From assembly GCA_024401025.1 (NCBI GenBank), contig JAKSLV010000001.1, positions 6,643-70,642 on the forward strand: a stretch of 64,000 nucleotides of DNA, in the 5' to 3' direction. Below, one piece after another: positions 23,325-50,724 of this stretch (the first letter of the stretch is position 1; every line of letters begins with the position of its first letter). The position numbers were made by a program, and so were the translations under genes. The stretch comes from Bacteroidales bacterium. GTDB taxonomy: Bacteria; Bacteroidota; Bacteroidia; Bacteroidales; UBA3824. The notes beneath the pieces were generated by a model. It searched no databases. It worked only from the letters and a program-made list of their open reading frames with translations, and was not told the origin of the DNA.

Positions 23325-23346
23325 CTGTTTGCTTTTTTATATTTTA

Positions 23347-23354
23347 CAAAGATA
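23347..23354 (-). promoter_or_regulatory. -7 box TAtcTTTG
   Basis: Reverse complement of caaagata, 23 nt upstream of ATG 23324. This is the likely promoter of the TPR/kinase operon. Confidence 0.45.
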
Positions 23355-23435
23355 GCAATTTTTATTTTATATCGCCTTTTTTTTGTCTGTTTTTTTTGTA
23401 TCCTGATGCTGGGGAAAATATCCCGGCTGCATCGG

Positions 23436-25367: not shown

Positions 25368-25369
25368 AA

Positions 25370-25423
25370 TTTTTGATTTTTGATTTTTGATTTTTGATTT
25401 TTGATTTTTGATTTTTGATTTTT
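25370..25423 (-). repeat. Heptanucleotide tandem repeat, TCAAAAA x7 on the minus strand (TTTTTGA x7 plus a 5-nt partial unit on the plus strand)
   Basis: I counted the units directly: 25370-76, 77-83, 84-90, 91-97, 98-404, 405-411 and 412-418, then ttttt. The tract lies between the stop at 25450 and ATG 25367. Confidence 0.95.
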
Positions 25424-25449
25424 CATTGTCCATTATCCATTGTCCACTA

Positions 25450-27084
25450 TCAGAACGCCTCGTGTATCGGCTCGCCGGATGCGTAGTCGGGGCAGAGGAT
25501 TCTTAGTATTGTGGCTATTGTGGGTGTGATGTCGGCTATCGACACCTTGCGGTTTATTGTCTTTATCCTGATGCCCTTGCCGTAGAAAGCCAGAGGCACG
25601 TGAGTGTCGTGGCTGTAGGCCGATTTCTGAGCCGACAGCGAGAAGTCGTCCACGTTTCCGGTGATTTCCTGCCATCCCGGTGCCAGGTTTATGATGATGT
25701 CGCCGGAGCGGTCGCGGTTCATGGTGTTGGCGGCCTGCCTCCATATTCCGGTGTTGGCCTTGCTGGATGTAAGCACGTTGGAAGGCATGGCGTGGTCGAT
25801 GCCGTCGATCTCCAGCAGAAACTGCGACGCGCGGTCCTGCACCTCGTCGGTCCTTAGCTTGTATCTCTCTATGGCCAGATGGTTGAGGTACACCTGATGG
25901 TTGTTGTATTTCTCTATCCATTTCTCGTCGCCATACATAGCCCTCAGATACGCCTCCAGCAGTATCATGGTGCTTTGCAGGTTTATCTGCATGCCGGGCA
26001 TCCCCATGTCGGCCAGAAAGGATGGCGAGTCTGATGCTCCCCTGTCGGCGGTGATGAACACCAGATAGTTGCCACGTCCAAACTTCATATCCAGGGTGGA
26101 CAGTATCGTGGCGATGTTGTGGTCGAGCCTTATGTATGAGTCCTGAAGCTCCACGCTTCTGATTCCGAACGCGTCGCTCACGTATCCGGGCTGAGCAAAG
26201 TTTATCATCAGCATGTCGGTAAACTCGTCTTTGCCCATCTGCTCGCCCTCTATGGCGGCCACGGCAAATTCGGTTATAAGGTCGTTGGCCCATGGCGTGT
26301 ATTTTATCAGCTGAAACTCCTTGCCGCTGGCCAGTTTCCTGATGTCATACGGGAAAGTGATGCGGCCCTCTATGCCGTTCTCGTAGCTGCTGTTGTCGGG
26401 CAGCGATGCGCGGTATTCCGATATGTCCTTGCTGGTGTTCCAGATACGGGAGCTGTATCGTTTGGGCAGCTGCTTGGCGTTGAAACTCTGCACCCATTCG
26501 GGCAGATGGTCCATGTAGTAGGATCCTGATACCATGGCCCCTGTCTTGTCGCAAAACCAGTATGCGCCGTTGCCCAGGCGTCCGGCCGGAAGTATGGCGC
26601 CCACGTTGTCCCACGATATGGATACCACCTTGCTCTGCTTGAAGTTCGACAGCCTCAGCTCATCACCGAGGGTGGTTCCCTGAAGCCTCTTCGGCGATGC
26701 CATTCCGCTTATTGATCCGCTGCCCACGGTCTGATATTTGGGGTCGCCGACGGCGGTGGCCGATTTGCGCGACAGCCTGTCGTACCACTGGTTGGATATT
26801 ATGCCGTGGTTGCATGGGTTGGAGCCGGTGTATATGGTGGCCAGTGCGGGTGCGGATTCGGTAATCATATACTCGTAGTAGGCGTTGGTGCAGTTGGCGC
26901 CCTGGTTAAGGATGCGCTTGAAACCGTTGTCGCCTATGGTGGAGCCGTAGCGCGTGATGGCGTCGTACCGCATCTGCTGAACCACTATGCCCACTATGAT
27001 GGGCACCTGCTCCTGGGCGTAGGCATCAGGGCATCCCAGACACATGGCAAGCATCAGCCACAGATATGAAAATATTTTTCGCAT
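25450..27084 (-). CDS. Alkaline-phosphatase-superfamily enzyme (nucleotide pyrophosphatase/phosphodiesterase-like), secreted
   Basis: Signal peptide MRKIFSYLWLMLAMCLGCPDAYAQ. ITESAPALATIYTGSNPCNHGIISNQWYD resembles the NPP/AP metal-site and nucleophile region. Confidence 0.8.
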   Translation of the reverse strand: MRKIFSYLWLMLAMCLGCPDAYAQEQVPIIVGIVVQQMRYDAITRYGSTIGDNGFKRILNQGANCTNAYYEYMITESAPALATIYTGSNPCNHGIISNQWYDRLSRKSATAVGDPKYQTVGSGSISGMASPKRLQGTTLGDELRLSNFKQSKVVSISWDNVGAILPAGRLGNGAYWFCDKTGAMVSGSYYMDHLPEWVQSFNAKQLPKRYSSRIWNTSKDISEYRASLPDNSSYENGIEGRITFPYDIRKLASGKEFQLIKYTPWANDLITEFAVAAIEGEQMGKDEFTDMLMINFAQPGYVSDAFGIRSVELQDSYIRLDHNIATILSTLDMKFGRGNYLVFITADRGASDSPSFLADMGMPGMQINLQSTMILLEAYLRAMYGDEKWIEKYNNHQVYLNHLAIERYKLRTDEVQDRASQFLLEIDGIDHAMPSNVLTSSKANTGIWRQAANTMNRDRSGDIIINLAPGWQEITGNVDDFSLSAQKSAYSHDTHVPLAFYGKGIRIKTINRKVSIADITPTIATILRILCPDYASGEPIHEAF

Positions 27085-33596: not shown

Positions 33597-35462
33597 ATGC
33601 GGTCCATAAAGCGTATATTGCTGATATTTAGCATATTGTTGTGCAGCTGCACATGGCTCTCTGCCCAAAACAAGGCAGAGCAAGACCGCGTTGCCAAACT
33701 CCAAGGACAGCTTAAGGGCCTCAACGAGGCCGCCCAGGTGAAAACCCTCTGCGACATAGCCGAGATATACTGCGCATCAAACCCCGACAAGAGCCTCCAG
33801 AGCATTGCCCAGGCCGAGAAGATACTTAAGAAGATACCAAACGACGTGGTATCCAAGGCCATGGTGTATGGCGGATACGGCAGCGCATATTACAGCAAGA
33901 AAAACTTCAAGAAAGCAGCCCAGAACTTCGAGAACGAGGCCGACGTGGCAGCCAAGTCGGGATTGCCCCGGATTCAGGAAAGGGCACTCTACAACGCCGG
34001 CATAGCATACCACGCCAGCAAAAACTACGATATGGCAATGGCCACATTCGGCAAGAGCCTCGACATAGCCAAAAAACTGGGCGACTTCTCATTTGTGGTC
34101 AACAACTATTACGCGCTATACGAGTCGGCATCAGCAGTAAGATACTTTAAATCCGCCAACGAATACTACCAGCAGTATATAAACGCACTAACGGGAAACT
34201 CCTCGAAGCTTAGGCACAAGCTTGGAGTGCTTAATTCCACCTACAAGGGCGAGCAGAAGCTTAGGGTGCTTACATACGCCGAGCTTCAGAACGTGGATGC
34301 CAGATACGTGGCCATGGATTCGGCCCTTAGCGAGCAGATGCAGCACTACATGCAGCTGGAGCAGGAGAGCGAGGAGAAAATCCAGGCCCTCAACCGCAAA
34401 ACCGCCCAGCAGGGCAAGGAGATACAGCAGCACAAGGAGGAGAACAACATCAACCACCAGCTTATTACCAAGCAGCGTCAGGTGATATCAGCATTTATTA
34501 TAATAGGTGTGCTGGTATTGGCCGGAGCGGGATTGCTCTTCTTCATGTTCAGCAAGATAAAGAAATACAGCAAGACCCTCGAAAACCAGAAATTCGAGAT
34601 TGAGGAGCAGAAAAACCTAATACAGATAAAGAACGACCAGATAACCGACTCCATCAACTACGCTCGCAAGATTCAGGATTCTATCCTGGTGCCTGAGAGC
34701 AAGATAAGGCGCTACGTGCCCGACATGTTCATATACTACAAGCCCAAAGACATTGTGAGCGGTGATTTCTACTGGTTTTCCAAATACGAGAGCAAGTACG
34801 TGATAACAGCCATCGACTGCACGGGCCATGGAGTGCCTGGCGCATTCCTGTCTATGATAGGCAACACGCTGCTCCATGAGATTGTGAACATCAAGCACGT
34901 TTTCAAGCCCGACCAGATACTCGCTATGCTCCACACCGGCATCATGCTGGCCCTCAATCAGGACAGCGAGGAGGCCACCAGCGAGGACGGCATGGATATG
35001 AGCCTCTGCACTGTGGATACAAGACTTAACCGTTTCCAGTTTGCCGGTGCCAAAAACAGCCTCTACGTGGTGCAGGGCGACAAGCTTAAAATCCTGAAAG
35101 CCAATTATTATTCGATAGGTGGACGCCCATTGCGTCCGGGTATGGATGTGCAGTTTACATGCTATGACTTCATGTACGACGACAGCACATCAATCTATAT
35201 GTTCTCGGATGGATACCTCGATCAGTTTGGAGGTGATACGGGAGAGAAATTCAACACACAGCGTTTCAAGGACATGATTCTGGAAAACCGCGAGATGTCG
35301 ATGGAAGATCAGAAAGCCGTATTTACATCCACCATGGACCATTGGAAGGCCGGTCGCCAACAGATCGACGATTTTCTGGTGATGGGCATCAAGCTGGCCT
35401 GCATCAATCAGCGCGAAGACGAGCTTAAAGCCATAGCCCAGCAGTCTACATCCGGTATTTAA
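33597..35462 (+). CDS. Signal peptide, periplasmic TPR domain, TM helix, coiled coil and a PP2C/SpoIIE-type protein phosphatase domain
   Basis: Signal peptide MRSIKRILLIFSILLCSCTWLSAQ. TM helix VISAFIIIGVLVLAGAGLLFFMF. SpoIIE motifs ARKIQDSILVPE, VSGDFYWF, DCTGHGVPGAFLSM and FSDGYLDQFGG. Confidence 0.85.
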   Translation: MRSIKRILLIFSILLCSCTWLSAQNKAEQDRVAKLQGQLKGLNEAAQVKTLCDIAEIYCASNPDKSLQSIAQAEKILKKIPNDVVSKAMVYGGYGSAYYSKKNFKKAAQNFENEADVAAKSGLPRIQERALYNAGIAYHASKNYDMAMATFGKSLDIAKKLGDFSFVVNNYYALYESASAVRYFKSANEYYQQYINALTGNSSKLRHKLGVLNSTYKGEQKLRVLTYAELQNVDARYVAMDSALSEQMQHYMQLEQESEEKIQALNRKTAQQGKEIQQHKEENNINHQLITKQRQVISAFIIIGVLVLAGAGLLFFMFSKIKKYSKTLENQKFEIEEQKNLIQIKNDQITDSINYARKIQDSILVPESKIRRYVPDMFIYYKPKDIVSGDFYWFSKYESKYVITAIDCTGHGVPGAFLSMIGNTLLHEIVNIKHVFKPDQILAMLHTGIMLALNQDSEEATSEDGMDMSLCTVDTRLNRFQFAGAKNSLYVVQGDKLKILKANYYSIGGRPLRPGMDVQFTCYDFMYDDSTSIYMFSDGYLDQFGGDTGEKFNTQRFKDMILENREMSMEDQKAVFTSTMDHWKAGRQQIDDFLVMGIKLACINQREDELKAIAQQSTSGI

Positions 35463-37053
35463 TCTCGAAACTGAAAGTGGTGATGCCCTCGTTGCAGGTA
35501 GCCACTAGCTTGGAATCCAGCGCCTTGAGAAACGAGTGGCAGAGATTAAGCCCTATGCTGGTGCCCTGCTCGTATGCCGTGCCGTACGACGATTCCACCA
35601 CCAGCCCCTTGTTTATCCTTGAAAGCTTGGGCTCAGGTATAGGGTCTCCGGTGTTGGATACCGCTATCCTGATGGTGTCGTTGCCGCTGTTGGCACATTC
35701 TATTATCACCACGCCGTCCTTTATGCAGAACTTTAGCGCGTTGGATGTAAGATTCCTTATTATGGTGCTTATCTTGTATTCGTCGGAATACAGCATGGTG
35801 TTTTTGCCTATGCTGTTGTGCAGGGTGATGCCCTTCTTTAGCGACTGCGCGGCCGACAGTTTCACTATCGAATCCACGGTCTTGTAGAGGTCAAACTCCG
35901 AAATCTCCATCTTCTGCCTGCCTGTCTGCGAGTTGGAATAGTCCAGAAGGTTGGTGAGAAGGTCGTAGCCCTCGGCTGCGCTTCGCCTTATGATGTCGGC
36001 AAACTCGCAGGCCTCGGTATAGTTGCCCTGCTCCAGGTTGATGCCGAGAAGCTCGCTGAAGCCTATTATGCCGTTGAATGGGTTCTTGAGGTCGTGGCCT
36101 ATTATCCTGATAATCCTGTTCTTGCTGTCCACCTCGTCCTTAAGCTCGGCCTGTGTGCGCTTAAGCTCGGTTATGTCGGTTATGTAGCCCAGAGTTCTGA
36201 TGTTGTTGCCGCTAGGATCCTTTATCAGCGTTCCGGCAATCTCTATGTCCACATGGCGTCCGTCGCTCTTGCGCACGATGGTGGTATCGAAAACGTAGTC
36301 GTCGCTGCCCATCAGCACCGTGTTCCTCATGAAGTAGGCTATCCTCTGACGGTCGCCCTCCACCACAACGTTCACGAAATCGTTGTAGCAGAAAACGTTT
36401 TTGTAGTCCCAGTCGAAGATTTCGGCGGTGCGCTTGCTTAGCATGAAAGTATCAGCCACCAGATTATAATCGTAGAAACTGCCGTAGTTGAACAGCATGT
36501 CGGCATCGTATTTTACGCCGTCGTGCTCGTCCTGCCTTACGTACTTGTAGCACCACGACATGTATTTGTTGCCCAGGTTGCAAATCTCCTTGCAGGCTAT
36601 CTCTATCTGGCTGATTGATAGTATCGGCGCCGTGCATGAGCTCTGTTCTGCATCGGCGTTGGATGTAAAAAACAGGCCCATGAGTATGTATGCGAAACAT
36701 TCGCCGTTCAGGAAAACGGGAATCTCTATCACCAGGCGCCCGTCGCCCACGCGCTGTATCACGCAGTTGGGGTTAGGCGAGCTGAACTTGCTCTGAGCCT
36801 CAGATATTATCAGGTTTTCGAAATGGTGGTTCTCGTGGGTCTTGAAAAACTTCGACCTCTTGCCGAAAGGCGTTTTTGTTACCGCCACAATCTCGATATC
36901 CAGCATCTTGGATATGATGCTTATCTCGTTGGAGGTGCTCACATATTTCAGAAACATCTCACCCAAGGCCACTGGAGATACCTCGCTGGAGGTATTTGAG
37001 TAGCTGATGCTGCCCCACATTGTGATGGCGTTCTCTGTGTTGATGTCCTGCAT
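35446..37053 (-). CDS. Cytoplasmic PAS sensor histidine kinase
   Basis: Part of ORF 35446..37095. The track start at 37095 is TTG, and the first ATG is at 37053 (MQDINTEN), so the start is uncertain. H-box IIRIIGHDLKNPFNGIIGF, N-box IIRNLTSNALKF. The G1 region SNTGDPIP is atypical. Confidence 0.8.
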   Translation of the reverse strand: MQDINTENAITMWGSISYSNTSSEVSPVALGEMFLKYVSTSNEISIISKMLDIEIVAVTKTPFGKRSKFFKTHENHHFENLIISEAQSKFSSPNPNCVIQRVGDGRLVIEIPVFLNGECFAYILMGLFFTSNADAEQSSCTAPILSISQIEIACKEICNLGNKYMSWCYKYVRQDEHDGVKYDADMLFNYGSFYDYNLVADTFMLSKRTAEIFDWDYKNVFCYNDFVNVVVEGDRQRIAYFMRNTVLMGSDDYVFDTTIVRKSDGRHVDIEIAGTLIKDPSGNNIRTLGYITDITELKRTQAELKDEVDSKNRIIRIIGHDLKNPFNGIIGFSELLGINLEQGNYTEACEFADIIRRSAAEGYDLLTNLLDYSNSQTGRQKMEISEFDLYKTVDSIVKLSAAQSLKKGITLHNSIGKNTMLYSDEYKISTIIRNLTSNALKFCIKDGVVIIECANSGNDTIRIAVSNTGDPIPEPKLSRINKGLVVESSYGTAYEQGTSIGLNLCHSFLKALDSKLVATCNEGITTFSFEIKYRM

Positions 37054-37142
37054 AGTGATAAAAAACTTTGGTACAAGATACGCAGTTTTTTTCAATTAAT
37101 GAAATTTATGAGGGATAATATTATTTTTTTTCATAAAAAAGG

Positions 37143-38668: not shown

Positions 38669-39406
38669 TTACTGGGCAAAGTTCTGATCCAGATAGGCCA
38701 GGAACTTCTCCTTGTACTGCTCGCTGATAGGAATAAATGTATCCCCGTCAAACACGATGCGTGCGCGCTCTATGATGTTTATCTTGTCGAGGTTTACGAT
38801 GTACGAGCGGTGGATGCGCATGAAACGGTCCTTTGGCAGATAGTTTTCCACGGCCTTTATGGTCAGGAGGCTCATGATAGGACGGCTGTCCTCGATGTGG
38901 AATCTCACATACTCGCGCATGCTCTCCACATACTTTATCTGGTCGAGGTTTATCTTCATCACCTTGTACTCGCTCTTGATGAAGATAAACTTGTTGTTGC
39001 CTACAAATTTGTCGGATCTGGCCTTGCCCATTGCTACCGACTCGCAGCTCTTGCAATACTCGGCGGCTTTCTCCACTGCCTTGCAGAAATCCTCATGAGC
39101 CAGAGGCTTCAGAAGATAGTCTACGCAGCCGGCCTTGTAGGCGTCGTAGGCCTTGTCGGTGCTGTTAGATACTATCACCACGGCAGGACGGTCTGCCAGC
39201 GATTTCATCAATGATATGCCGTTGGTATCAGGCATTTCTGCCTCCACGAATACCAGGTCAACGTCATTCTTCTCGTTCTGGAGGAATTTCTCAGCCTCTT
39301 GAATATTCTCAAACTTAGCCAGTAATTGGAGATTCGCATCCTTCTCTATGTAGGAGCTTATCTGCTTTAGCGATTTGGCATCATTGTCAATTGCTATACA
39401 TCTCAT
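38669..39406 (-). CDS. LytTR-family response regulator with an atypical receiver domain (Glu at the phospho-acceptor position)
   Basis: REC plus LytTR architecture. The acceptor region reads VDLVFVEAEMPDTNG where the family consensus is DLLFLDIQMP. The N-terminal acidic pocket reads AIDND rather than DDE. Conserved Lys is present in DYLLKP. LytTR segment RIHRSYIVNLDKI. Confidence 0.9.
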   Translation of the reverse strand: MRCIAIDNDAKSLKQISSYIEKDANLQLLAKFENIQEAEKFLQNEKNDVDLVFVEAEMPDTNGISLMKSLADRPAVVIVSNSTDKAYDAYKAGCVDYLLKPLAHEDFCKAVEKAAEYCKSCESVAMGKARSDKFVGNNKFIFIKSEYKVMKINLDQIKYVESMREYVRFHIEDSRPIMSLLTIKAVENYLPKDRFMRIHRSYIVNLDKINIIERARIVFDGDTFIPISEQYKEKFLAYLDQNFAQ

Positions 39407-39460: not shown

Positions 39461-40195
39461 TTATTGTGAGTCTTTTTCAGACTTTGGGGTTTCTTTGTCC
39501 TTGTCCTTCTTCTTTGGAGCCGGTATGGTGTACTTGTAGTTGAGGGCAAAGATGTGCTTGTTGATGTCAATCTTGTTTTTGCCTCTGTTGAATTTCTCCT
39601 CCAGCATGTACTCCAGTCCTATGGTGTTGCGCTTGCTTATCTTCTTCTTCACGCCCACGGTGTAGCGGTCCTTGTCAACAAGCTTGCGCTCCACGTTGTA
39701 GAAAAACTCGTAACTTATGTATGGAGTCAGCTTTATGGCCTTTATCTTGGCTGATGCTCCAACCTTTGTTCTCAGGTACTGCAAGTGTACACCGTCGCCA
39801 TCTCCGCTGTCGTCGGAATAGTTGCAGTATTTTTCCCTTGCCTCCAGTTTCAGTATCCACGGGCTGATGCTTGCCCCTAAGCTGGCTCCAAACCTGCCGC
39901 TCCAGCTGCCGCCCTTGTCGTTCTTGTGCTCGTAGTTGGTACGATATTCCACGCCCAGCTGCAGATACTTTATTGGCTGATACTCTATGCTTGGGGTCAC
40001 GAGTATCTCCTGCGTGCCTGTGGCCTTGCAGAAACGGCTCTCCAGATCCACACCGGCCGACAGTTGTTTCATAAACTCCTTCTCGATGCCGGCGCCCAGA
40101 TATATCAGCGAGCGGTTGTCCGCATTCTGTGCCTTTGTATCAATGCTGCTGGCCACTATAGCCACCAGCAGCATTATTGTTGCTAGATTCTTCAT
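39461..40195 (-). CDS. Outer-membrane beta-barrel protein with a Lys/Asp/Ser-rich C-terminal tail
   Basis: Signal peptide MKNLATIMLLVAIVASSIDTKAQ. Amphipathic strand pattern (LQLGVEYRTNYE, IGLEYMLEEKF, FALNYKYTI). Tail PAPKKKDKDKETPKSEKDSQ. Its ATG overlaps the upstream stop (ATGA at 40192..40195). Confidence 0.55.
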   Translation of the reverse strand: MKNLATIMLLVAIVASSIDTKAQNADNRSLIYLGAGIEKEFMKQLSAGVDLESRFCKATGTQEILVTPSIEYQPIKYLQLGVEYRTNYEHKNDKGGSWSGRFGASLGASISPWILKLEAREKYCNYSDDSGDGDGVHLQYLRTKVGASAKIKAIKLTPYISYEFFYNVERKLVDKDRYTVGVKKKISKRNTIGLEYMLEEKFNRGKNKIDINKHIFALNYKYTIPAPKKKDKDKETPKSEKDSQ

Positions 40196-40866
40196 TTTGT
40201 ATCCGCAGATTCCACAGCCTGCTGTGGGTTGTTGGTCTTTTTGTCGTAATACACTCTTATGAGAGCTGTATCTTTCAGAAAATCCACCTTTACCACGTCG
40301 ATTCTCTTTATCTTGAGTCCTGTGCGCTTCTCAACGTCCTGCTTCAGCAGCTCGCGGTCCTGAATCTTGATGTTCTCGATGCGCTCGTATACCACCTCCA
40401 GATGGCCCTCGCCGCGTATCAGGAACTTCTCCAAGAGGTATACGCACAGGAGTATGGCGCCATTGGTGAGTGCCAGCTCGGCAAAACTTACCTTCTTGTT
40501 GGCCAGCGCGTTTACCACTGCAATGCCTATCACCACAAAGAGATAAGTCATCTCGCGGATAGGAACAGGGTCGGTTCGGTATTTCAGGATGCCGAACACG
40601 GCAAAAAGTCCAAGGGCAAAGCCCAGCTCTATCTTTACACCTTCCAGCAGGTAACAGAGAAGGAATATCGCTGTACCAAGCGCAAAGTAGGTGAATACAA
40701 ATTCCTTGCGTCCTGTGCCCTTGTCGTAGATAAGCTTTATCAGCACAAAGAGCACTGCTACATTAAATGTGAGACGGAAAAGCAGTTTTCCGAAATCATT
40801 GTAGTCAATAAGGTTGAAGTTGAAGATCTTTATGTCCTCAGCTGTCTGTAATAAAATATCCAGCAT
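40192..40866 (-). CDS. DUF4956-family polytopic membrane protein
   Basis: Four to five TM helices followed by a soluble C-terminal domain. I recognise both the pattern and the pairing with a VTC-domain gene as the DUF4956 family arrangement, from memory and not searched. Confidence 0.7.
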   Translation of the reverse strand: MLDILLQTAEDIKIFNFNLIDYNDFGKLLFRLTFNVAVLFVLIKLIYDKGTGRKEFVFTYFALGTAIFLLCYLLEGVKIELGFALGLFAVFGILKYRTDPVPIREMTYLFVVIGIAVVNALANKKVSFAELALTNGAILLCVYLLEKFLIRGEGHLEVVYERIENIKIQDRELLKQDVEKRTGLKIKRIDVVKVDFLKDTALIRVYYDKKTNNPQQAVESADTK

Positions 40867-40875
40867 TTTTTAGTT

Positions 40876-41697
40876 TTAATTAAAAATTGTTTTACTAAGT
40901 TCCTCGTCCATCAGCGCGCCCTGCAGCGACTTCTGTATTTTCCTTATCCTCTCCTTGAAGAGGTTGTGCTTGATGCCGTCCTGCATGCTAAGCACCCGGC
41001 CTATGCAGTATTTGCTGAAACCCGATTGTTTCACCTTGTTTATGGCCAGCACCTTCTGCAATGGCGATTTCTCGGCGCCCTGCTCGTGCTTTAGCTCCAC
41101 CATGGAGAATCCGTTGGTCTCGGTGTTGGTGTTCAGGTCCTTGAACCCAAGCTCGCAGTCTATCGTGCAGCGCTCGCCCATATCCTTGCGCACCAGCGTG
41201 ATGCGGTGGAAATGGTTCTGTATCACGGGTATCAGCGATTCGGGATCGTATGGAATGTGCAGCCTCAGGAAATCGTATTCCTCCGGAAAAATCTCGTAGA
41301 GGCTGGTGGTGATCTCTATGCGTTTCTTCTTGGTTTTGCCCTTGTTGTTTTTGTGCTTCACCTCCAGAAATACGTTGCCGGTATCCAGATACGTTCGCTT
41401 GCGTACCTTGTAGCGGTCCAGCTTGCCATTGTGATGCGATGTAAAGAACTTGTTGTCGGGCGTGTCGAAATACACTGTCTCGTAAGCCATGTACCTAAGC
41501 CCGTTTATTTCCACAATGTAGTACTCGTCAATAATGTCGGGCAGTATCTTCTCGAACAGGACGTCGGTCCTTATGGGGAACTTGGTATCCACCCTGTTCA
41601 TGAAGTTGGCCTTTCCAATGTCTTTGAGCCCTATCGATGCGAAACTTTGCAAAATGCTTTTGTCCATTGGTGTGTTGCTATGATTGCTGTTTTTCAT
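40876..41697 (-). CDS. VTC-domain (TTM-fold) polyphosphate-polymerase-domain protein
   Basis: Part of ORF 40876..41709. The track start is GTG, so I trimmed to ATG 41697. Motifs NRVDTKFPI, VYFDTPDNKFF, LDRYKVRKRTY and VFLEVKHKNNKGKTKKKR match the basic tunnel strands of VTC/CYTH-like domains. Confidence 0.75.
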   Translation of the reverse strand: MKNSNHSNTPMDKSILQSFASIGLKDIGKANFMNRVDTKFPIRTDVLFEKILPDIIDEYYIVEINGLRYMAYETVYFDTPDNKFFTSHHNGKLDRYKVRKRTYLDTGNVFLEVKHKNNKGKTKKKRIEITTSLYEIFPEEYDFLRLHIPYDPESLIPVIQNHFHRITLVRKDMGERCTIDCELGFKDLNTNTETNGFSMVELKHEQGAEKSPLQKVLAINKVKQSGFSKYCIGRVLSMQDGIKHNLFKERIRKIQKSLQGALMDEELSKTIFN

Positions 41698-41705
41698 GTA
41701 ATACA

Positions 41706-41766
41706 CCACTGTTTTTTTCTACCATTATGACTCCGAAAATGTTAAATGGTTTAAAAAAAACAGTGG
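41706..41766 (-). repeat. 13-bp perfect inverted repeat (ccactgttttttt / aaaaaaacagtgg) with a 35-nt loop
   Basis: The arms lie at 41706..41718 and 41754..41766. The repeat sits in the 100-nt spacer between the beta-helix lipoprotein gene and the VTC-domain gene. On the mRNA the 3' arm ends 8 nt before ATG 41697. Confidence 0.8.
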
Positions 41767-41809
41767 TTTTTTTTTATGATTTTTAATATTTTATAAATAA
41801 ATGTGCTTT

Positions 41810-43669
41810 TTAGAACCCTCTGTTGGCAGATGTGGATGTCATTTGCCCGGTGCTGAGGCTTATCTCAGTGCCGGTTCCGGTGGCCTTGTCGGCTGGATAG
41901 TATAATCCTGTGTTCTTGGTGTGCTCGGTTCCTGATACTGTGGCATTGGTGATGATGCTGTATTTTCCGCTGCCAAGCTCAGGTGCCGACATTGTTATTA
42001 CGTTGTATGCCTGAGGCGCTTTCCACGCCATGATGTTCTTGCCCTTGGCATCGTTTATGGCCAGTATCTCGCCGGCCGATCCGTTGGCCTCGGTAAACAG
42101 GGCTGTCTGGGTGGCGTTGGGTGCTGATGCCATGCCCTTGGTTCCAATGGCTATCACCGTGCCTCCGTTTATTGTAGGCTTGTAGCCCTCGCCGGCGTCG
42201 ATGGGCTCGTTGCCGGCGCCGTTCTGGCTCACCAGCAGTATGCCGTTGTCTATCACCAGCTCGCCGTTGGAATCAATGCCGTCGCCCTTGGATGTTACCA
42301 TTACGAAGCCGCCTTTCATATACAGGCCCACGTTGCCGCCTGATGGCAGGCCGGGTTTGCTGCCGGGCATTCCCGGACGTCCGCCGAAACCACCACCGGG
42401 CTCCTTGTTGCCGCCCTCGCTGGCGTTTATGGCGTCGTCAAGAGAGTTTATTATAAGTGTGCCGCCGTTGATGTTTACCTGAACGCCCTGCACGCCCTCG
42501 TAGCAGTTGCTGATGTTGATGGTGCCGCCGTTGATGTTTACGCTGCCCAGACGCTTGCCGGTCTCGGTTTTCTTAACGGTGATGCCGTGGCCGCTGCCGC
42601 TCTCGGCGCTTGTCTTGGTGGTGGTGGGGTTAAGGGTGAATGTGCCGCCGTCTATGGTGATGTTGCCCAGGGCGCAGATGCACTTGTCGGATTTCTGGAT
42701 GTCGAATGTGCCGTTCTTTATCACGATGTGGGCGCCCGATGATATGCCGTCGTCGCCCGACTGCATGGTGATCCTGCCGCCTATTATGTTGATAGAGCCC
42801 TCGGCGTGGATGGCGTCCTTGCCGCTGTCCTCGCTGGCTGGCTGCTGCGACAGAAGTGTAAGGTTGCCGCCGCTTATGTATACGAATCCCTTGTTCTCCT
42901 TGGTGGATGTGGCCTTAAGTGCGTGCTGATACGCGCTTATGTTTATGTTGCCGTCCTCTATCTTTATGAAGTCCTTGGCCTGTATGCCGTCGTTCTGTTT
43001 CGACGATATGGTGTATGTTCCCGATTTTATTATTATGCCGTCGGATGTCTTTATGGCATGGTTCCTGAGGCTTGATACCTCCAGGCGGCCGGTCTTGCCC
43101 GACTGTGCCGACAGGTATATGCTCTGGTTGCTCTGTATGGCTGCCGATGTGTCGGCCGTGGTGGTGGATATCAGCTTGCTGGTGGTGCCGTCTTTCAGCA
43201 GTATGGATACCTTGGGGCAGGTTTTTATCTTGAGGGCCGCGCCTGTGGATGATGTTACGCTGGCATTGTCGAGTATCAGCTTTACAACGCCCTTGTCTTC
43301 CTTGTCGAGGTCTACGGTAATTCTTCCGTCGCTGATGCTGCCCGATATCAGATAGCATCCGCTCTTGGTGATGGTGGTTTCCTGTCCGTTGGCCTCAGCT
43401 CCCGATCCTTCCACCTGAACGCTGCTGTTCTTGCCTGTAATCTTGTTGGCGGTGGCAAGGTCGAATACGTAGTCGTCGGGCGATTCGTCTATGGTGGCCT
43501 CTATTACGTTGTCGAGATTCTCCTCGCTGTTGTTTACCTTGTCCTCGGTTTCGGTGCCCGCCGATGGGTCGTAGGTCTCGTCGCTGTTCTCGAAAGCCTT
43601 TTTGCAGCTTCCAAGTGTACCGGCTAGCAGCAGGGCCAGCATCGCAGATGTCAGAAATTTGGTTTTCAT
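41810..43669 (-). CDS. Surface lipoprotein with a parallel beta-helix repeat domain (Cthe_2159-like carbohydrate-binding family)
   Basis: Lipoprotein signal MKTKFLTSAMLALLLAGTLGSCKK. Repeated coils of the form I-x-GG-T-x-x-I-x-S-x-DDGI (ISGGNLTL, IIGGRITMQSGDDGISSG, INGGTINISNCYEGVQG, INGGTLIINSLDDAINAS, MKGGFVMVTSKGDGIDSNG). Gly/Pro-rich insert GGNKEPGGGFGGRPGMPGSKPGLPSGGN. Confidence 0.65.
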   Translation of the reverse strand: MKTKFLTSAMLALLLAGTLGSCKKAFENSDETYDPSAGTETEDKVNNSEENLDNVIEATIDESPDDYVFDLATANKITGKNSSVQVEGSGAEANGQETTITKSGCYLISGSISDGRITVDLDKEDKGVVKLILDNASVTSSTGAALKIKTCPKVSILLKDGTTSKLISTTTADTSAAIQSNQSIYLSAQSGKTGRLEVSSLRNHAIKTSDGIIIKSGTYTISSKQNDGIQAKDFIKIEDGNINISAYQHALKATSTKENKGFVYISGGNLTLLSQQPASEDSGKDAIHAEGSINIIGGRITMQSGDDGISSGAHIVIKNGTFDIQKSDKCICALGNITIDGGTFTLNPTTTKTSAESGSGHGITVKKTETGKRLGSVNINGGTINISNCYEGVQGVQVNINGGTLIINSLDDAINASEGGNKEPGGGFGGRPGMPGSKPGLPSGGNVGLYMKGGFVMVTSKGDGIDSNGELVIDNGILLVSQNGAGNEPIDAGEGYKPTINGGTVIAIGTKGMASAPNATQTALFTEANGSAGEILAINDAKGKNIMAWKAPQAYNVITMSAPELGSGKYSIITNATVSGTEHTKNTGLYYPADKATGTGTEISLSTGQMTSTSANRGF

Positions 43670-43775: not shown

Positions 43776-43783
43776 CAAAATTA
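43776..43783 (-). promoter_or_regulatory. -7 box TAatTTTG
   Basis: Reverse complement of caaaatta, 107 nt upstream of ATG 43669. Confidence 0.35.
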
Positions 43784-43838
43784 GTGATTTGTTGCAAATC
43801 CACAAATTTTTATTTTGTATTGTTTCGTTTTTTATTTC

Positions 43839-43846
43839 TACCTTTG
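43839..43846 (+). promoter_or_regulatory. -7 box TAccTTTG
   Basis: TAnnTTTG match, 41 nt upstream of ATG 43887. Confidence 0.45.
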
Positions 43847-43886: not shown

Positions 43887-45428
43887 ATGAGCATCACACC
43901 TCAGATAATCATTGCCATTATAATATTGTATGTGGCCATGCTGATGATAATAAGTTACATAACCACCAAGAAAAAGGCCGACAGCAAGTCGTTCTTCACT
44001 GGCAGCCGCAAGAGCCCCTGGTATGTTGTGGCCATAGCCATGGTGGGTACCTCCATATCCGGAGTCACCTTCATAAGCGTTCCCGGCATGGTGGGTGCCT
44101 CGCAGTTTGGCTATCTGCAGATGGCCTTGGGATTTGTGGCCGGATATTTCGCCATTGCCTACGTGCTGCTGCCATTGTATTATAAGCTAAACCTCAGCAG
44201 CATATACACCTATCTCGACCAGCGTTTCGGCAACAGCAGCTACAAGGTGGGTGCGGCGTTTTTCCTCATCAGCAAGTTTCTGGGATGCGGTGTGCGCATG
44301 TATCTTACAGCCATTGTGTTGCAGCTGATAGTTTTCGACGGGCTGGGTGTTCCGTTCTGGCTTAATGTGGCCGTTACGATGGTGGTGGTGTGGCTCTATA
44401 CGTATAGGGGAGGAGTCAGGACCCTCGTATGGGTGGATATGATACAGACCTTGTCGCTGATACTGGCCGTGGTGATATGCATCTGGTGCATAATGCAGAA
44501 CATGGGCCTCAGCTTCCCCGATATGGTGGGCTCTGTGGTGGACAGCGGCATGTCTAGGATATGGTATTTCGATGATGTTAACGACCGCCAGTATTTCTTC
44601 AAGCAGTTTTTTGCCGGAATGTTCACCACCATAGCCATGACGGGACTCGATCAGGATATGATGCAGAAAAACCTCAGCTGCAAAAACCTGAAGGACGCGC
44701 AGAAAAACGTGATAAGCTACGGATTCTCTTTCCTGCCCGTAAACCTGCTCTTCCTGGTGCTGGGTGTGCTGCTGTATCAGTTTGCAGCCAGCAAGGGTTG
44801 CTATCTCGACGGCGTAATCTCCGATCTTGACGGCAACAGGCTAAAGCCCGACGAGCTGTTCCCGTATCTGGCCACTGGCCGCACTCCCGACGGTGCACAG
44901 CTTATATCAGTCTGGGTGGCAGTGTTTTTCATCATAGGACTTATATCGGCGGCGTTCTCGTCGGCAGGCTCTGCCGTAACGGCGCTCACCACATCCTTCA
45001 CCATCGACATTCTCCGTGCCGATAAGAAACACGACGAGGCGTCGCTGGCCCGCGTGCGCAAGATAGTGCACGTATGCAACGCGCTCATGATGGGAGTGCT
45101 GATATATTCCTTCAGCGTTATCGGCAACAACAGCGTTATCGATGCCGTGTACGTGGTGGCCAGCTACACATACGGTCCGCTTCTGGGCCTCTATTTCTTC
45201 GGCCTGTACACCAGGCGCGTGGTGCGCGATGGATGGGTGCCTGTTGTGTGCATCCTGTCGCCAATTATATGCCTGATACTCAACCTTAACAGCGCCGAAT
45301 GGTTTGGCGGCTACAAGATGGGCTACGAGCTTCTGCTCTACAACGGCGGCATCACGGCCTTGGGCTTGTGGCTGGCTTCCTCCTCTGCTCCAGCTCCTGA
45401 GAGCGGAAAGTGTCCTTCATCAAATTAA
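43887..45428 (+). CDS. Sodium:solute symporter family transporter
   Basis: About 13 TM helices. SFFTGSRKSPWYVVAIAMVGTSISGVTFISVPG is typical of the SSF N-terminal region. Confidence 0.85.
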   Translation: MSITPQIIIAIIILYVAMLMIISYITTKKKADSKSFFTGSRKSPWYVVAIAMVGTSISGVTFISVPGMVGASQFGYLQMALGFVAGYFAIAYVLLPLYYKLNLSSIYTYLDQRFGNSSYKVGAAFFLISKFLGCGVRMYLTAIVLQLIVFDGLGVPFWLNVAVTMVVVWLYTYRGGVRTLVWVDMIQTLSLILAVVICIWCIMQNMGLSFPDMVGSVVDSGMSRIWYFDDVNDRQYFFKQFFAGMFTTIAMTGLDQDMMQKNLSCKNLKDAQKNVISYGFSFLPVNLLFLVLGVLLYQFAASKGCYLDGVISDLDGNRLKPDELFPYLATGRTPDGAQLISVWVAVFFIIGLISAAFSSAGSAVTALTTSFTIDILRADKKHDEASLARVRKIVHVCNALMMGVLIYSFSVIGNNSVIDAVYVVASYTYGPLLGLYFFGLYTRRVVRDGWVPVVCILSPIICLILNLNSAEWFGGYKMGYELLLYNGGITALGLWLASSSAPAPESGKCPSSN

Positions 45429-46632
45429 ACTCGGCCAGCTTTTCGGGAGTAAGGTTGCTGTCGGAGTTTTTGCCCCAGCGGCGGCAGAAGTACAGCACGT
45501 CGTAAATCCTTGATACCTTGTATTTTCTGCTCAGACGCAGGCATAGGTCGTAGTCCTCGCCGTAGCTCACGTTCCTGAAAGGGTTGGCCCTCACTAGCTC
45601 GGTAAGGTAGCACCTTGGCGCGCCAAAACCGTTTACCCTCAGGGCGTTGTTGGCGCCGTTCTCCTGAGTGTATTCGCGGTGGTCTATCACTATGTCGTTT
45701 ATCGGCTTCATGTTGATGTCGGTGAGCCTGTAGCTGCCTATCAGCACTCCGCACTCCTCCTCCATGAACTTGTCCACGATGCGTTGCAGCGTGTTTTCCG
45801 ACGAGTACACATCGTCGCTGTCCAGCTGTACGGCAATGGCTCCGCACTCGGGGCTCTGTATTCCTATGTTCCAGCATCCGCCAATGCCTATTCCGGGCTC
45901 GGTGGTCTCTATCACATGCAGGTTGGGGTATTGCTCGGCGCATTGGGCCAGTATGTCGCGTGTGGGCTGCTGGCTCTGGTTGTCCACCACTATTATATTA
46001 TAGGCAAAGTTGGTTTTCTGTCCGGCTGCCGATCTTATGGCGTCGGCTATCACCTCGGGCCTGTCTTTCACGGGTATTATCACTGATGCTTTGGTCCTGA
46101 AGCTGCCCACTATCTCGGCAAATCCCTCCACGCCCCTTGTGGTCGGAGTTATGTATCCGCCGGTCATCTTCAGATATTTTGTGAAAACCTCCTCAGCCTC
46201 TTTCTGATACTCGCGGTTTCTGGGGTCGCAGTATGCGAAATGGGCCTTCTCGAAATCCTGGTTGCTGCTTGCGGCGCATACCAGGGGCTTGCCTGCGCGC
46301 TGTATCCTGCCCACTGTCTGCAGCATCAGCCTCAGATCGTAGAAACATGCCATCCTGATGCTGCTGCTCATCTTTGTGGCCGCCTGCCGGGCCATGGCGT
46401 TGTCTATTAGCACTGCCGGGCCAAAATCGAAATCGTCACGCACCGATCCGTCGGTAAAGGTGGCCATGCTGTGGTATGTCATGGCATATCCTGATGCTTC
46501 CGGCATATCGTTAATGCTGCACTCGGCATCAGTAAGTAATAATAAGGTGTGGCCGTCGCCGGCTTTCTCAAAATAATCCTTCAGCGATGCTATCTTGCTG
46601 ATGTTTATTGTATTGATGTGGTTTGGGTACAT
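45352..46632 (-). CDS. Glycosyltransferase family 2 protein with a roughly 190-aa N-terminal domain of unknown function
   Basis: Part of ORF 45352..46716, trimmed to ATG 46632 (MYPNHINT). GT2 core VIIPVKDRPEVIADAIRSAAGQKTNFAYNIIVVDNQS and the DxD motif VQLDSDDVY. Confidence 0.8.
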   Translation of the reverse strand: MYPNHINTINISKIASLKDYFEKAGDGHTLLLLTDAECSINDMPEASGYAMTYHSMATFTDGSVRDDFDFGPAVLIDNAMARQAATKMSSSIRMACFYDLRLMLQTVGRIQRAGKPLVCAASSNQDFEKAHFAYCDPRNREYQKEAEEVFTKYLKMTGGYITPTTRGVEGFAEIVGSFRTKASVIIPVKDRPEVIADAIRSAAGQKTNFAYNIIVVDNQSQQPTRDILAQCAEQYPNLHVIETTEPGIGIGGCWNIGIQSPECGAIAVQLDSDDVYSSENTLQRIVDKFMEEECGVLIGSYRLTDINMKPINDIVIDHREYTQENGANNALRVNGFGAPRCYLTELVRANPFRNVSYGEDYDLCLRLSRKYKVSRIYDVLYFCRRWGKNSDSNLTPEKLAEFNLMKDTFRSQELEQRRKPATSPRP

Positions 46633-46787
46633 ACTTCTGAAATATTTTTTTTGCAATATTACAAAAAATACATAAAAAAACTGCAAAAAAATTTGGATGG
46701 TGCACGAAATTTGCATAATTTAGGCTCGTACAACATATCCGGCGGATGGCTTGCCGGATGATATTTAACAACAATAATCATAAAAAT

Positions 46788-48305: not shown

Positions 48306-48442
48306 ATAAATATTTTATCAAAACGTTAAGTTTTTGTGCATTTTTTTTAATTTTTTTTTGGTACGGAAATTGCTAGTTGATTAATTTTTGCTTTTCTTAA
48401 ATTGTTTTTGCAAAATTTCATCTTTTTTCAACGAAAAGTATT

Positions 48443-48450
48443 TATATTTG
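48443..48450 (+). promoter_or_regulatory. -7 box TAtaTTTG
   Basis: TAnnTTTG match only 10 nt upstream of ATG 48460, implying a very short leader. Confidence 0.45.
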
Positions 48451-48459
48451 TGTCTTATA

Positions 48460-49665
48460 ATGGAGAACATTTTAGATACACTGGTATCCGCGCATCATGA
48501 ATGCATGGAGCGGGCCCTCGGCGGCCGCAAATACTCCCTCGACGATCTCTACGCCGTAGAGCAGCGTCATCTTCAGGGTGGTGTGTTCAGGCAGCATGCG
48601 TGTATGTGTACCGTGCAGGGCCACAGGGTGAACGCGCTTTCATGCGGAAACGGCAGCATCAGGGTGATGGCCTGGAGCCAGATGCACGGCAACGAGCCCG
48701 TATCCACACTGGCGCTGGCCGATGTGATGAATTTTCTGGAGGGCGGCAGCCCGATAGCCAGTATGATATTGCAGAATCTGACCATCGTGGCCATTCCGCT
48801 GCTGAATCCCGAGGGACATTTATCCGCCAACAGGCGAAACTCCATGGGCATCGATGTCAACCGCGACGCCTTGGATCTGGTATCGCCTGAGGCTGCTTTT
48901 TTGATGGAGACCCACGCCGCGCTGAAGCCCGATTTCGGACTCAACCTCCACGACCAGGAGCTCTACCACATCACCGAGCCTCTGCGCCGTCAGACTCTTG
49001 TGGCTCTTTTGGCTCCGGAATGTGATGAGGCAAAGACAGTTACCCCGGCACGATACAAGGCCATGCAGGTGGCTGGTTTTGTGGCCAAACAATTGTTGGA
49101 ATCGCCGGTGGCTTCGGGCAGAGTGGCCAAGTATCAGGACTCTTATACTCCTACAGCCTTTGGCGACACGTTCATGAGGAAGGGCACATCGTCGGTGCTG
49201 ATAGAGGCGGGATCGGTGCCAGGCGATCATGAGCGCAATACTGCCAGGCAGATGGTGTTTGCTTCGATAGTGATGTCGCTGTATGCCATGTGCGGAGCCA
49301 TGTACGGTGAAGAGGCAGTATCAGCCTACGACGCCTTGCCGCTGAACATATACAACACCATGTACGACATTGTGTTGCACGGGCTGGAGGTTTCCGCCCC
49401 CGGGCGCAAATACAGGGTGGACGTGGCCATACGCCGCACAAAGACCTCATGCAACGACGAGGATTTTGCCGACGACAGCACCGATTTCCGTATTGCCAAC
49501 ATCGGAAACCTGTCCGCTTTTGCCGCAATAATGGATTTCGGCAATGCCGACATAGCATACAACGGCCCATACAACGGCCTGTATGTGGGCCGCCCTGCCG
49601 ATTTCGACATAGTGGATGCCGCCGGAAATATTATTAACGTAAGAGATTTGCTAACCAATATCTAA
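48460..49665 (+). CDS. M14-family zinc carboxypeptidase-like protein, cytoplasmic
   Basis: Part of ORF 48388..49665, trimmed to ATG 48460 (MENILDTL). Zinc and catalytic motifs QMHGNEP (HxxE), NRRNSMGIDVNRD, GLNLHDQ and LIEAGS. Confidence 0.8.
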   Translation: MENILDTLVSAHHECMERALGGRKYSLDDLYAVEQRHLQGGVFRQHACMCTVQGHRVNALSCGNGSIRVMAWSQMHGNEPVSTLALADVMNFLEGGSPIASMILQNLTIVAIPLLNPEGHLSANRRNSMGIDVNRDALDLVSPEAAFLMETHAALKPDFGLNLHDQELYHITEPLRRQTLVALLAPECDEAKTVTPARYKAMQVAGFVAKQLLESPVASGRVAKYQDSYTPTAFGDTFMRKGTSSVLIEAGSVPGDHERNTARQMVFASIVMSLYAMCGAMYGEEAVSAYDALPLNIYNTMYDIVLHGLEVSAPGRKYRVDVAIRRTKTSCNDEDFADDSTDFRIANIGNLSAFAAIMDFGNADIAYNGPYNGLYVGRPADFDIVDAAGNIINVRDLLTNI

Positions 49666-49668: not shown

Positions 49669-50724
49669 ATGGAAAACAAAACTAATGTGAAGCCTGCCGA
49701 GCCGCTTACCGAGGAACAGCGGCGAGTGCTCATAGGCAACTACTTCAGGATCAACCACGTGGAACTGCCTTCGTTTACCAAGGGCAGGATTCTGCTTACA
49801 TATATTTTCGTGTTTCTGGGTTTCTTGATGATGCTGTACCTTAAGAGCGCGGTGCCCACTGTTATTTTCTGTTCGGCGTGTTTCGTGTTCGCATTCTGGC
49901 AGTTTTATCTTTTCATAAAACCCTATTTCCACGAGCGCAGGCTTTTCGCCAAGCGTCCGCAGGAATCCGACATGTGCTCATGGCTGGTAAAAGACCTCAA
50001 GGAGGTGGTGAAGCCCAGGGCCGTACAGACCCTGAGCCTGAATATGAGCGATGTAAGGCCCGAGAATTTCATCATAATACCGATACCGATTTTCTGGCTG
50101 GCTCCGGGCATCAATGCCGACGATGTGCTAAGGTCGCCCCTGAGCGACGGCTCGTACATATACTCGATGTGGAGGGTGCAGATAATTGTGCTTACAAAAC
50201 ACTACATCAGCCTCTTCAAGTGCAACTACTGCTGGACATCCAATACCATAAGCGGCATCAGCACCAACGAGTTCTATTTCCAGGACATCACATCCATCCG
50301 AAACGATTTCAGGGAGATAGAGTTCAGCTTTGTGGATAATCCCGAGCAGCCCATTGGCGCTGGCAAGGTGTTCTGCGTTACCAATTTCTCGGGCGAGTAT
50401 CTCACAGTAATCAACAACATACCATCGCTTACGGCGCCCAAGAACGTGTCGGTGGATCTGGAATACATGGTGTCGCTGCTCAGGATGGTGATCCGCAACA
50501 GGAGGTTCGGCATCACACATGAGGAGGTTTCCAGGGAGGAGGTTTCTCCAGTGGACGAGAATCCTGATGCCGAGCAGAAACGCGACGAAAACCGCGAGGC
50601 CATCAATTCCATCCACGGCCAGTATTTGGACGATGCGCCCGAGCAGATGCCGTCGCAGTTCGACGATGCGCCGCTTTCCAGTTTCGGAGATGCCGGTGCT
50701 GATGCTGCCCCCAATGCCTCATAG
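49669..50724 (+). CDS. Membrane protein with two N-terminal TM helices, a PH-like soluble domain and an acidic disordered tail; function unknown
   Basis: TM helices ILLTYIFVFLGFLMMLYL and VIFCSACFVFAFWQFYLFI. It starts 3 nt after the M14 gene stop. Confidence 0.6.
   Translation: MENKTNVKPAEPLTEEQRRVLIGNYFRINHVELPSFTKGRILLTYIFVFLGFLMMLYLKSAVPTVIFCSACFVFAFWQFYLFIKPYFHERRLFAKRPQESDMCSWLVKDLKEVVKPRAVQTLSLNMSDVRPENFIIIPIPIFWLAPGINADDVLRSPLSDGSYIYSMWRVQIIVLTKHYISLFKCNYCWTSNTISGISTNEFYFQDITSIRNDFREIEFSFVDNPEQPIGAGKVFCVTNFSGEYLTVINNIPSLTAPKNVSVDLEYMVSLLRMVIRNRRFGITHEEVSREEVSPVDENPDAEQKRDENREAINSIHGQYLDDAPEQMPSQFDDAPLSSFGDAGADAAPNAS

Follow-up and report, generated by a model that had tools for sequence, protein, structure and literature searches.

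A 64,000-nt stretch of the genome of a Bacteroidales bacterium (UBA3824; assembly GCA_024401025.1, contig JAKSLV010000001.1, positions 6,643-70,642), here called the window, encodes on its minus strand a gene cassette in which a soluble VTC-domain protein, a putative polyphosphate polymerase, is followed immediately by a DUF4956 membrane protein and a predicted outer-membrane barrel of the DUF2490 family. The VTC and DUF4956 genes are the universal unit of this cassette, paired reciprocally and across phyla; DUF2490 often joins them in the diderm FCB group, and the fourth member is variable but extracytoplasmic. Polyphosphate (polyP) in bacteria is attributed to PPK1 and PPK2, and we know of no pairing of PPK enzymes with export components. 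No match to the PPK families was found for any cassette protein in Pfam or NCBIfam; the presumed product, polyP made from nucleoside triphosphate (NTP), would be common to both, but the fold and family are unrelated. The cassette may encode a membrane-coupled polyP synthase that hands its product across the envelope, a reading that is favoured tentatively and is possible rather than probable.

Gene order and distribution of the cassette

Five consecutive minus-strand open reading frames (ORFs) were identified by ORF reading and Pfam searches:

41810..43669, minus strand: Cthe_2159-family beta-helix lipoprotein, 619 aa (Pfam PF14262, E=2.6e-53)
40876..41697, minus strand: soluble VTC/TTM-domain protein, putative polyphosphate polymerase, 273 aa (PF09359, E=1.6e-22)
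40192..40866, minus strand: DUF4956 polytopic inner-membrane protein, 224 aa (PF16316, E=2.7e-48)
39461..40195, minus strand: DUF2490 outer-membrane beta-barrel, 244 aa (PF10677, E=2.5e-14)
38669..39406, minus strand: response regulator with receiver and LytTR domains, 245 aa (Response_reg, E=6.6e-15; LytTR, E=4.7e-20)

The first four of these agree in position, strand and family with an initial annotation of the window, as do the 9-nt gap between the VTC and DUF4956 genes, the ATGA overlap shared by the DUF4956 stop and the DUF2490 start, and the 54-nt gap between DUF2490 and the regulator, all of which were read in the sequence. The spacer from the lipoprotein stop to the VTC ATG at 41697, previously given as 100 nt, is 112 nt, and would be 142 nt with a VTC start at 41667. 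The VTC ORF is extendable to a GTG at 41709, and its true start is probably the ATG at 41667 (MDKSIL), giving a protein of 263 aa, since close homologues, 263 aa long, start from the corresponding ATG; residues of the window protein are numbered here from the ATG at 41697. For the lipoprotein, VTC, DUF4956 and DUF2490 proteins there is no specific NCBIfam model. A 100% identical DUF4956-annotated protein is present at NCBI in a Bacteroidales metagenome-assembled genome (MAG), and the nearest genome loci are those of rumen Bacteroidales MAGs.

The order VTC-DUF4956-DUF2490 was observed in Bacteroidales, Marinilabiliales and Prolixibacteraceae by look-ups of the genomic context of homologues. 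A forward scan with the VTC alignment, covering one genome per species, yielded more than 585 loci, the best 80 of which were analysed, and in a reverse test 80 metagenome loci were picked with a DUF4956 alignment. Genes in these loci were called by simple ORF rules and by hidden Markov models built from the loci themselves, and both sets of 80 consist of the best-scoring relatives, mostly of the FCB group. DUF4956 lies immediately 3' of VTC in 79 of the 80 species loci, the sole exception being at a contig end, and in the reverse test VTC adjoins DUF4956 in 57 of the 59 loci with room for it. DUF2490 comes immediately 3' of DUF4956 in 74 of the 78 forward loci with room, and is next in 46 of 69 loci of the reverse test. 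The arrangement is far beyond chance, and these counts effectively refute the notion that the four genes are mere neighbours with no shared function; the recurrence of the pair in other phyla and the stop and start codons that overlap, or nearly do, also speak against that notion, which retains a negligible probability.

The genes that accompany this core are less constant. A CotH kinase gene is found within 5 kb in 21 of the 80 forward loci and a Cthe_2159 gene in 25, with both together in three, so that Cthe_2159 is not a fixed member and CotH may stand in its stead. Response regulators with a LytTR domain are nearby in 23 of the 80 cassettes, and LytS-type kinases in 18. The co-conservation of the four genes, which the initial annotation proposed to measure, is strong for VTC, DUF4956 and DUF2490, but does not extend to Cthe_2159, nor to DUF2490 in the versions of the cassette from Proteobacteria, Deinococcus and Streptomyces.

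Outside the FCB group, the order of VTC and DUF4956 is sometimes reversed. A Deinococcus plasmid (locus L096, 5593-8403) carries CotH-VTC-DUF4956, Aminobacter plasmids (L095, 6487-8739) carry DUF4956-VTC followed by a gene annotated as 'esterase-like activity of phytase', and a Streptomyces replicon (L097, 6111-7609) has overlapping DUF4956 and VTC genes, all without DUF2490. In Firmicutes and Bifidobacteria, a cotH-'polyphosphate polymerase'-DUF4956 arrangement has been described beside pel operons (Whitfield et al., bioRxiv 10.1101/768473). When 1.84 billion representatives were searched with a profile, 5,889 clusters (50% identity) matched the VTC family at E<=0.001, of which 2,032 reached E<=1e-30, and the best 150 representatives are all standalone proteins of ~250 aa. 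The family is spread over gut and rumen Bacteroidales, marine Bacteroidota, Firmicutes, Actinobacteria, Deinococcus and Alphaproteobacteria.

The putative VTC-domain enzyme and its predicted envelope partners

The VTC protein matches PF09359 with 80.6 bits against a cut-off of 23, over model positions 2-231 of 235, and matches no other Pfam family, other TTM families included, at E<=0.01. Neither a signal peptide nor a hydrophobic or transmembrane segment was found in it, and there is no SPX domain, the VTC domain being the only one that Pfam finds in the 273-aa protein. The profile searches proposed in the initial annotation gave significant matches for VTC, DUF4956 and Cthe_2159, and the basic tunnel motifs that it listed (RVDTKF, YFDTPD, RYKVRKRTY and FLEVKHKNNKGKTKKKR) are all present, their basic residues being invariant in the family. 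Single-sequence phmmer searches of PDB sequences with the VTC and DUF4956 proteins returned nothing useful, and a profile of 24 close homologues of the VTC protein reached only Vtc2 (E=0.63) in the PDB.

The catalytic domain of yeast Vtc4, the sequence of which was checked against PDB 3G3Q and found identical over 277 residues, was aligned by hhalign, HMMER and MAFFT with the bacterial family (95 homologues). According to mutagenesis in a cryo-EM study of VTC, synthesis of polyP by Vtc4 needs K200, R264, R266, K281, R361, S457, K458, Y359 and the Mn2+ ligand E426 (bioRxiv 10.1101/2023.01.27.525886), and six of these correspond to the following residues of the window protein:

Vtc4 K200: window K39, invariant in 95/95 homologues
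Vtc4 R264: window R99, invariant in 95/95
Vtc4 R266: window R101, invariant in 95/95
Vtc4 K281: window K114, invariant in 95/95
Vtc4 R361: window R165, invariant in 95/95
Vtc4 E426 (Mn2+ ligand): window E201, invariant in 95/95

The equivalents of Vtc4 R196, E279, K294, R296, R373, D377 and K428 are likewise invariant. K458 is the only one of the needed residues that differs in the inactive paralogues Vtc2 and Vtc3 (bioRxiv 10.1101/2023.01.27.525886). Local alignment pairs the Vtc4 motif FSKF, which contains S457 and K458, with an invariant FSKYxxG motif (FSK[FY]xxG in the family) at the point where the Pfam model ends, and S228 and K229 are probably the bacterial counterparts; global alignment by MAFFT placed them elsewhere.

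The DUF4956 protein matches PF16316 over its full length (model positions 1-169 of 169), and an AlphaFold2 model built from 43 sequences shows five helices and, at the C-terminus, a beta-alpha-beta-beta domain, with a predicted local distance difference test score (pLDDT) of 76 and a predicted template modelling score (pTM) of 0.66. The transmembrane core, GFALGLFAVFGI, is more conserved than the soluble domain, and conservation is highest in the stretches LLExVKxELGFALGLFAVFGIxxYRTDPIPIxEMTYLFVVIG...NALANKKVS of this core. R31, R53, R97, E105, K124, K125 and E130 are invariant charged residues, while K78 and E80 are nearly invariant. Charges averaged over 93 homologues are biased between the N-terminal tail (net -4.3) and loop 1-2 (+2.5), and by the positive-inside rule these family-wide values point to a predicted topology with the N-terminus out and the C-terminus in, which would place the invariant YRTDPIPIxE loop (3-4) and the C-terminal domain on the cytoplasmic side, where the VTC protein is. 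Even at E<=10 a DUF4956 profile retrieved no PDB chain, not even one of Vtc1/3/4, and a Foldseek search of the model against solved structures gave nothing at E<0.05, the weak matches being to ACT/NikR-like domains and MscS. These profile and fold searches thus detected no homology of DUF4956 to the Vtc1/DUF202 channel.

The DUF2490 protein has a signal peptide ending in ..TKAQ and, in addition to its own family, weak Pfam matches to Porin_4 and OMP_b-brl. Its AlphaFold2 model (pLDDT 84; 11 DSSP strands after the signal peptide) is read as a barrel of ~12 strands, and all of the solved structures that match the model are outer-membrane barrels, the best length-normalised matches being NanC (TM score 0.49-0.59) and the oligogalacturonate porin VhGalP, with autotransporter beta-domains next. 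Like the 12-strand KdgM/NanC porins for acidic oligosaccharides, DUF2490 is predicted to be a monomeric barrel of similar size with mostly basic residues in its inferred lumen (10 invariant basic residues and five invariant acidic residues are assigned to the lumen by strand parity), but TM scores with these porins are 0.44-0.59 at ~11% identity, and DUF2490 has its own families in Pfam and in TCDB, where it is listed as a putative porin (1.B.81; PMC4827864). No Pfam KdgM match was found for the window protein, and one homologue gives a weak one. The modelled lumen charges would fit a path for anions and would equally fit a salt-bridged, closed lumen; buried salt-bridge networks have been described in a preprint for some DUF2490 models.

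In the lipoprotein, the lipobox (LGSC, Cys22) leads into an acidic stretch; the beta-helix spans residues 95-347, and a Gly/Pro-rich linker and a C-terminal part come after it. The protein is likely to be exposed on the cell surface. The closest solved structure (4PEU/4PHB; E=9.8e-18, residues 77-288) is that of Cthe_2159 of Clostridium thermocellum, a PL9-like beta-helix that belongs to the same Pfam family; this family has been described as binding cellulose and polygalacturonic acid. The window protein differs from this founder in being twice as long and a lipoprotein, in its acidic linker, Gly/Pro-rich segment and extra C-terminal region, and in its setting in a VTC cassette. A lipobox Cys and acidic residues are also found in 20 of 25 cassette CotH proteins and in most of the Cthe_2159 proteins; in the CotH lipoproteins the Cys is followed by R-[KDN]-[DE] (for example L013 10143-11537, L014 10259-11653 and L059 6631-8952), and one cassette CotH has a C-terminal sorting domain of the type IX secretion system. 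The variable partners are thus always extracytoplasmic, which fits a path from cytoplasm to surface. The presence of a CotH kinase at the surface raises the question of its phosphoryl donor outside the cell.

Transcription signals, regulator and surrounding genes

Two sequence elements were noted upstream of and within the cassette:

43776..43806, minus strand: Bacteroidetes-type promoter consensus TTTG-N19-TAATTTTG (TAnnTTTG), ~106 nt upstream of the lipoprotein ATG
41705..41767, minus strand: two-tier stem-loop in the lipoprotein-VTC spacer (RNA minimum free energy -25.1 kcal/mol, z=-2.87)

Eight Bacteroidetes-type promoter sites are present in the window against 0.64 expected, a number reached in none of 100 shuffles, and the site at 43776..43806, which may well function as a promoter, is the only one upstream of or inside the cassette. 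A back-to-back partner site (43814..43846, plus strand) would serve an SSF symporter gene, and both sites lie in the same divergent intergenic region of 217 nt. No terminator-like site was found on the minus strand between 38400 and 44000, the sigma-70 promoter/terminator scan being uninformative for this organism. Because there is one upstream promoter consensus and no internal promoter or terminator-like site, the five genes may form one transcription unit.

The 13-bp inverted repeat that had been described in the spacer is real but longer, with an outer stem of 15 bp (ACCACUGUUUUUUUU / GAAAAAAACAGUGGU) and an inner stem of 6 bp (ACCAUU / AAUGGU). The same hairpin architecture recurs at the same place in related loci (L001, 7869-8000, and L005; L015, 2240-2380), where the outer stem is AAAAAUGCCGUUU / AAACGGCAUUUUU, and it is absent from the short-spacer loci L016 and L017. 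The change of outer stem within an unchanged architecture is compensatory and argues for a conserved structure, which might act in attenuation, processing or stability.

The LytTR regulator is atypical, as had been noticed before: alignment with CheY places Glu at the phospho-acceptor position D57 and Asn at D13, and there is no adjacent kinase. Regulators of the closest relatives keep D57, have N13 and are also without a neighbouring kinase, and distant cassettes have a LytS-type kinase and a canonical receiver (D/D/D). This distribution suggests that the lineage of the window has turned its cassette regulator phospho-independent.

The flanking genes encode Pgk, a histidine kinase, an SSF symporter and a glycosyltransferase of family 2 (GT2), and are housekeeping or unrelated by Pfam. 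The SSF symporter ORF (43887..45428, plus strand) and the GT2 ORF (45352..46716, minus strand) are convergent, with an overlap of 77 nt at 45352..45428, and this gene pair also flanks the cassette in two relatives (L001 and L004). Signalling genes are dense at 15401..27084 (minus strand) and 33597..37095, with several PAS/TPR histidine kinases, a FimS-like kinase and two phosphatases of SpoIIE type, and a type I phosphodiesterase/nucleotide pyrophosphatase is encoded at 25450..27084. Neither ppk nor ppx was found among the other large ORFs of the window covered by a partial, non-exhaustive Pfam scan. For two adjacent plus-strand ORFs (48388..49665, 425 aa, and 49669..50724, 351 aa), Pfam gave nothing at E<=1e-5. 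A known anti-phage defence system was also considered and rejected, there being zero PADLOC matches for the five cassette proteins and one partner CotH.

Possible functions and relation to known systems

Synthesis and export of polyP are favoured because of the Vtc4-like active site, the VTC-DUF4956 pairing, the translational coupling to a barrel and the extracytoplasmic partners; polymerase activity, physical coupling, which way transport runs and what the lipoprotein does are all conditional parts of the scheme. Also in favour are the predicted topology of DUF4956, the nearness of the DUF2490 model to acidic-sugar porins, the reported binding of polyanionic sugars by the Cthe_2159 family, and the one upstream promoter consensus with no minus-strand terminator-like site within the cassette. 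The VTC protein would polymerise polyP from NTP at the inner face of the cytoplasmic membrane, using a Vtc4-type basic tunnel and the Mn2+-binding Glu, and would be docked on a DUF4956 oligomer through which the growing chain would cross the membrane. At the outer membrane of Bacteroidota and their relatives, the chain would be passed or held by the ~12-strand DUF2490 barrel, and a surface or periplasmic lipoprotein (Cthe_2159 here, CotH kinase elsewhere) would bind or use it. The LytTR regulator would control the cassette, independently of phosphorylation in this lineage. It is doubtful, though conceivable, that the division of labour goes as far as VTC and DUF4956, with or without DUF2490, exporting polyP that surface CotH uses as phosphoryl donor and Cthe_2159 binds as a surface or matrix polyanion. 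If polyP is indeed synthesized and exported in this way, that of Gram-positive bacteria could cross-link the cationic Pel polysaccharide.

Several observations weigh against this scheme. In the enzyme, the position of Vtc4 Y359 is occupied by Phe in 91 of the 95 bacterial homologues and by Tyr in four, and the exchange Y359F in Vtc4 lowers polyP in yeast (bioRxiv 10.1101/2023.01.27.525886). The beta1 motif, R35-x-D37-x-K39, has an invariant Asp where Vtc4 has Thr (T198), and the proposed equivalents of S457 and K458 come from a local motif match that the global MAFFT alignment contradicts. The R-x-D-x-K motif is intermediate between the R-x-T-x-K of Vtc4 and the E-x-E-x-K found in TTM hydrolases, and this, combined with the Phe in place of Y359, may point to changed metal use or chemistry. 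Also unfavourable are the moderate confidence of the DUF4956 model, the absence of detectable similarity between DUF4956 and the VTC channel or any known channel, and the mixed charges of the DUF2490 lumen, which with salt-bridge networks of the kind described could make a plugged barrel. Neither CotH nor Cthe_2159 is present within 5 kb in 37 of the 80 FCB loci, and Aminobacter, a true diderm, has the pair without any barrel gene.

Some of these features would be expected if polyP were to stay in the cytoplasm in membrane-anchored form, with DUF4956 acting as a tether or regulator with an ACT-like sensor and with the barrel and lipoproteins serving a distinct though linked purpose, for instance the entry of anions or phosphate, an explanation that seems rather unlikely. 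Its support comes from the dissimilarity of DUF4956 to known channels, the weakly ACT/NikR-like C-terminal domain in the Foldseek search, the barrel-less pair in Aminobacter, Deinococcus and Streptomyces, and the view of the authors of a preprint on SIR_1594-1592 of S. intermedius (bioRxiv 10.1101/2024.04.20.589940), who propose that polyP remains cytoplasmic because VTC channel subunits are lacking. However, cytoplasmic retention leaves unexplained both the coupling to a barrel in 74 of 78 loci and the lipoprotein partners, which are always secreted, and the peak of DUF4956 conservation in the transmembrane core would be unusual for a mere anchor.

The TTM superfamily is broad, taking in triphosphatases and cyclases, and its breadth gives some room to the unlikely case that the VTC-domain protein is not a polymerase, but hydrolyses tri- or polyphosphate or transfers phosphate to a lipid, glycan or protein; the cassette would then handle another phosphorylated product, or NTP or polyP hydrolysis would energise transport. 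Phe at the Y359 position, the acidic residue that R-x-D-x-K keeps in common with the E-x-E-x-K hydrolases, and the weakness of the sequence matches between the bacterial profile and Vtc2 and Vtc4 all agree with this case, whereas a Pfam VTC score over the gathering cut-off with no other TTM family reached, the invariance of all the triphosphate-holding basic residues and of the Mn2+-binding Glu, and the apparent retention of the Lys specific to active Vtc4 disagree with it. Quite improbable is a reversal of the direction of transport, in which the lipoprotein would capture polyP or a phytate-like polyanion, DUF2490 and DUF4956 would import it, and the TTM protein would pull it in or process it, in the manner of a polysaccharide utilization locus. 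Running from a surface binder through a barrel and an inner-membrane protein to a cytoplasmic enzyme, the layout does resemble, by analogy, the nutrient loci of Bacteroidota, the Aminobacter cassette includes the phytase-like esterase annotation, and the solved folds nearest to DUF2490 belong to porins that take up acidic oligosaccharides; but uptake gives no obvious role to the surface CotH partner found in 21 of 80 loci, the regulators are of LytS/LytTR type (no search aimed at Pho boxes or Pho-type regulators was made), the conserved unit includes no TonB-dependent or SusC/D components, and the link of the Gram-positive loci to the pel biofilm matrix points to export.

Eukaryotic VTC complexes (yeast Vtc4/Vtc3 or Vtc2/Vtc1; 7YTJ, 8I6V; catalytic domain 3G3Q), in which the polymerase works with a channel in the vacuolar membrane and polyP synthesis is coupled to translocation (PMC9911596), have in common with the bacterial cassette the tunnel domain and its triphosphate- and Mn2+-binding residues, and the cassette enzyme is likewise genetically tied to a dedicated polytopic membrane protein. 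The bacterial domain, however, is free-standing (~260 aa), fused neither to transmembrane helices nor to SPX, and has Phe for Y359 and Asp for T198; the predicted five-helix DUF4956 is unrelated in sequence and fold searches to the three-helix DUF202-type Vtc subunits; nothing in eukaryotes corresponds to the outer-membrane and lipoprotein partners; and LytTR two-component regulation is found in the cassette, in contrast to inositol pyrophosphates in eukaryotes. The proposal in the initial annotation of a split bacterial analogue of VTC is in part supported, by the VTC domain and the tunnel residues, but not by the lack of SPX, by Phe at Y359 or by DUF4956; since the latter has neither sequence nor fold similarity to Vtc1/DUF202, 'split VTC' is, for the membrane part, an analogy and not a homology.

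The core of VTC and DUF4956 is also common to the Gram-positive pel accessory genes cotH-'polyphosphate polymerase'-DUF4956-DUF4832 (bioRxiv 10.1101/768473), where a secreted CotH is a frequent third partner, as in the FCB loci. The window differs from these in having Cthe_2159 for CotH, an extra DUF2490 gene and no adjoining pel operon. Adjacent DUF4956 and DUF2490 genes (BT3498-99) appear as well in a transcriptome table of B. thetaiotaomicron. No functional study of the cassette, no proposal of export and no dedicated polyP-exporting bacterial system were found in the literature searched, in agreement with the earlier remark that no experimental description was known; the gene association is in print, though (10.1101/768473; 10.1101/2024.04.20.589940), and a claim of total novelty needs softening because the association of cotH, a VTC-like gene and DUF4956 has already been published for Gram-positive pel loci.

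The cassette thus offers a candidate, widely distributed, sharply delimited and open to testing, for bacterial polyP synthesis that is independent of PPK and directed to the envelope. Should export prove wrong, the strict VTC-DUF4956 pairing would still mark an unknown membrane-linked use of the TTM fold. Should it prove true, the cassette would constitute a third, PPK-independent bacterial route to polyP and the first known machine for polyP secretion, would explain the phosphoryl donor of extracytoplasmic CotH kinases, and would add a polyanion to the chemistry of the bacterial surface and matrix; the coupling of polyP synthesis to translocation would then have arisen twice, with unrelated membrane parts.

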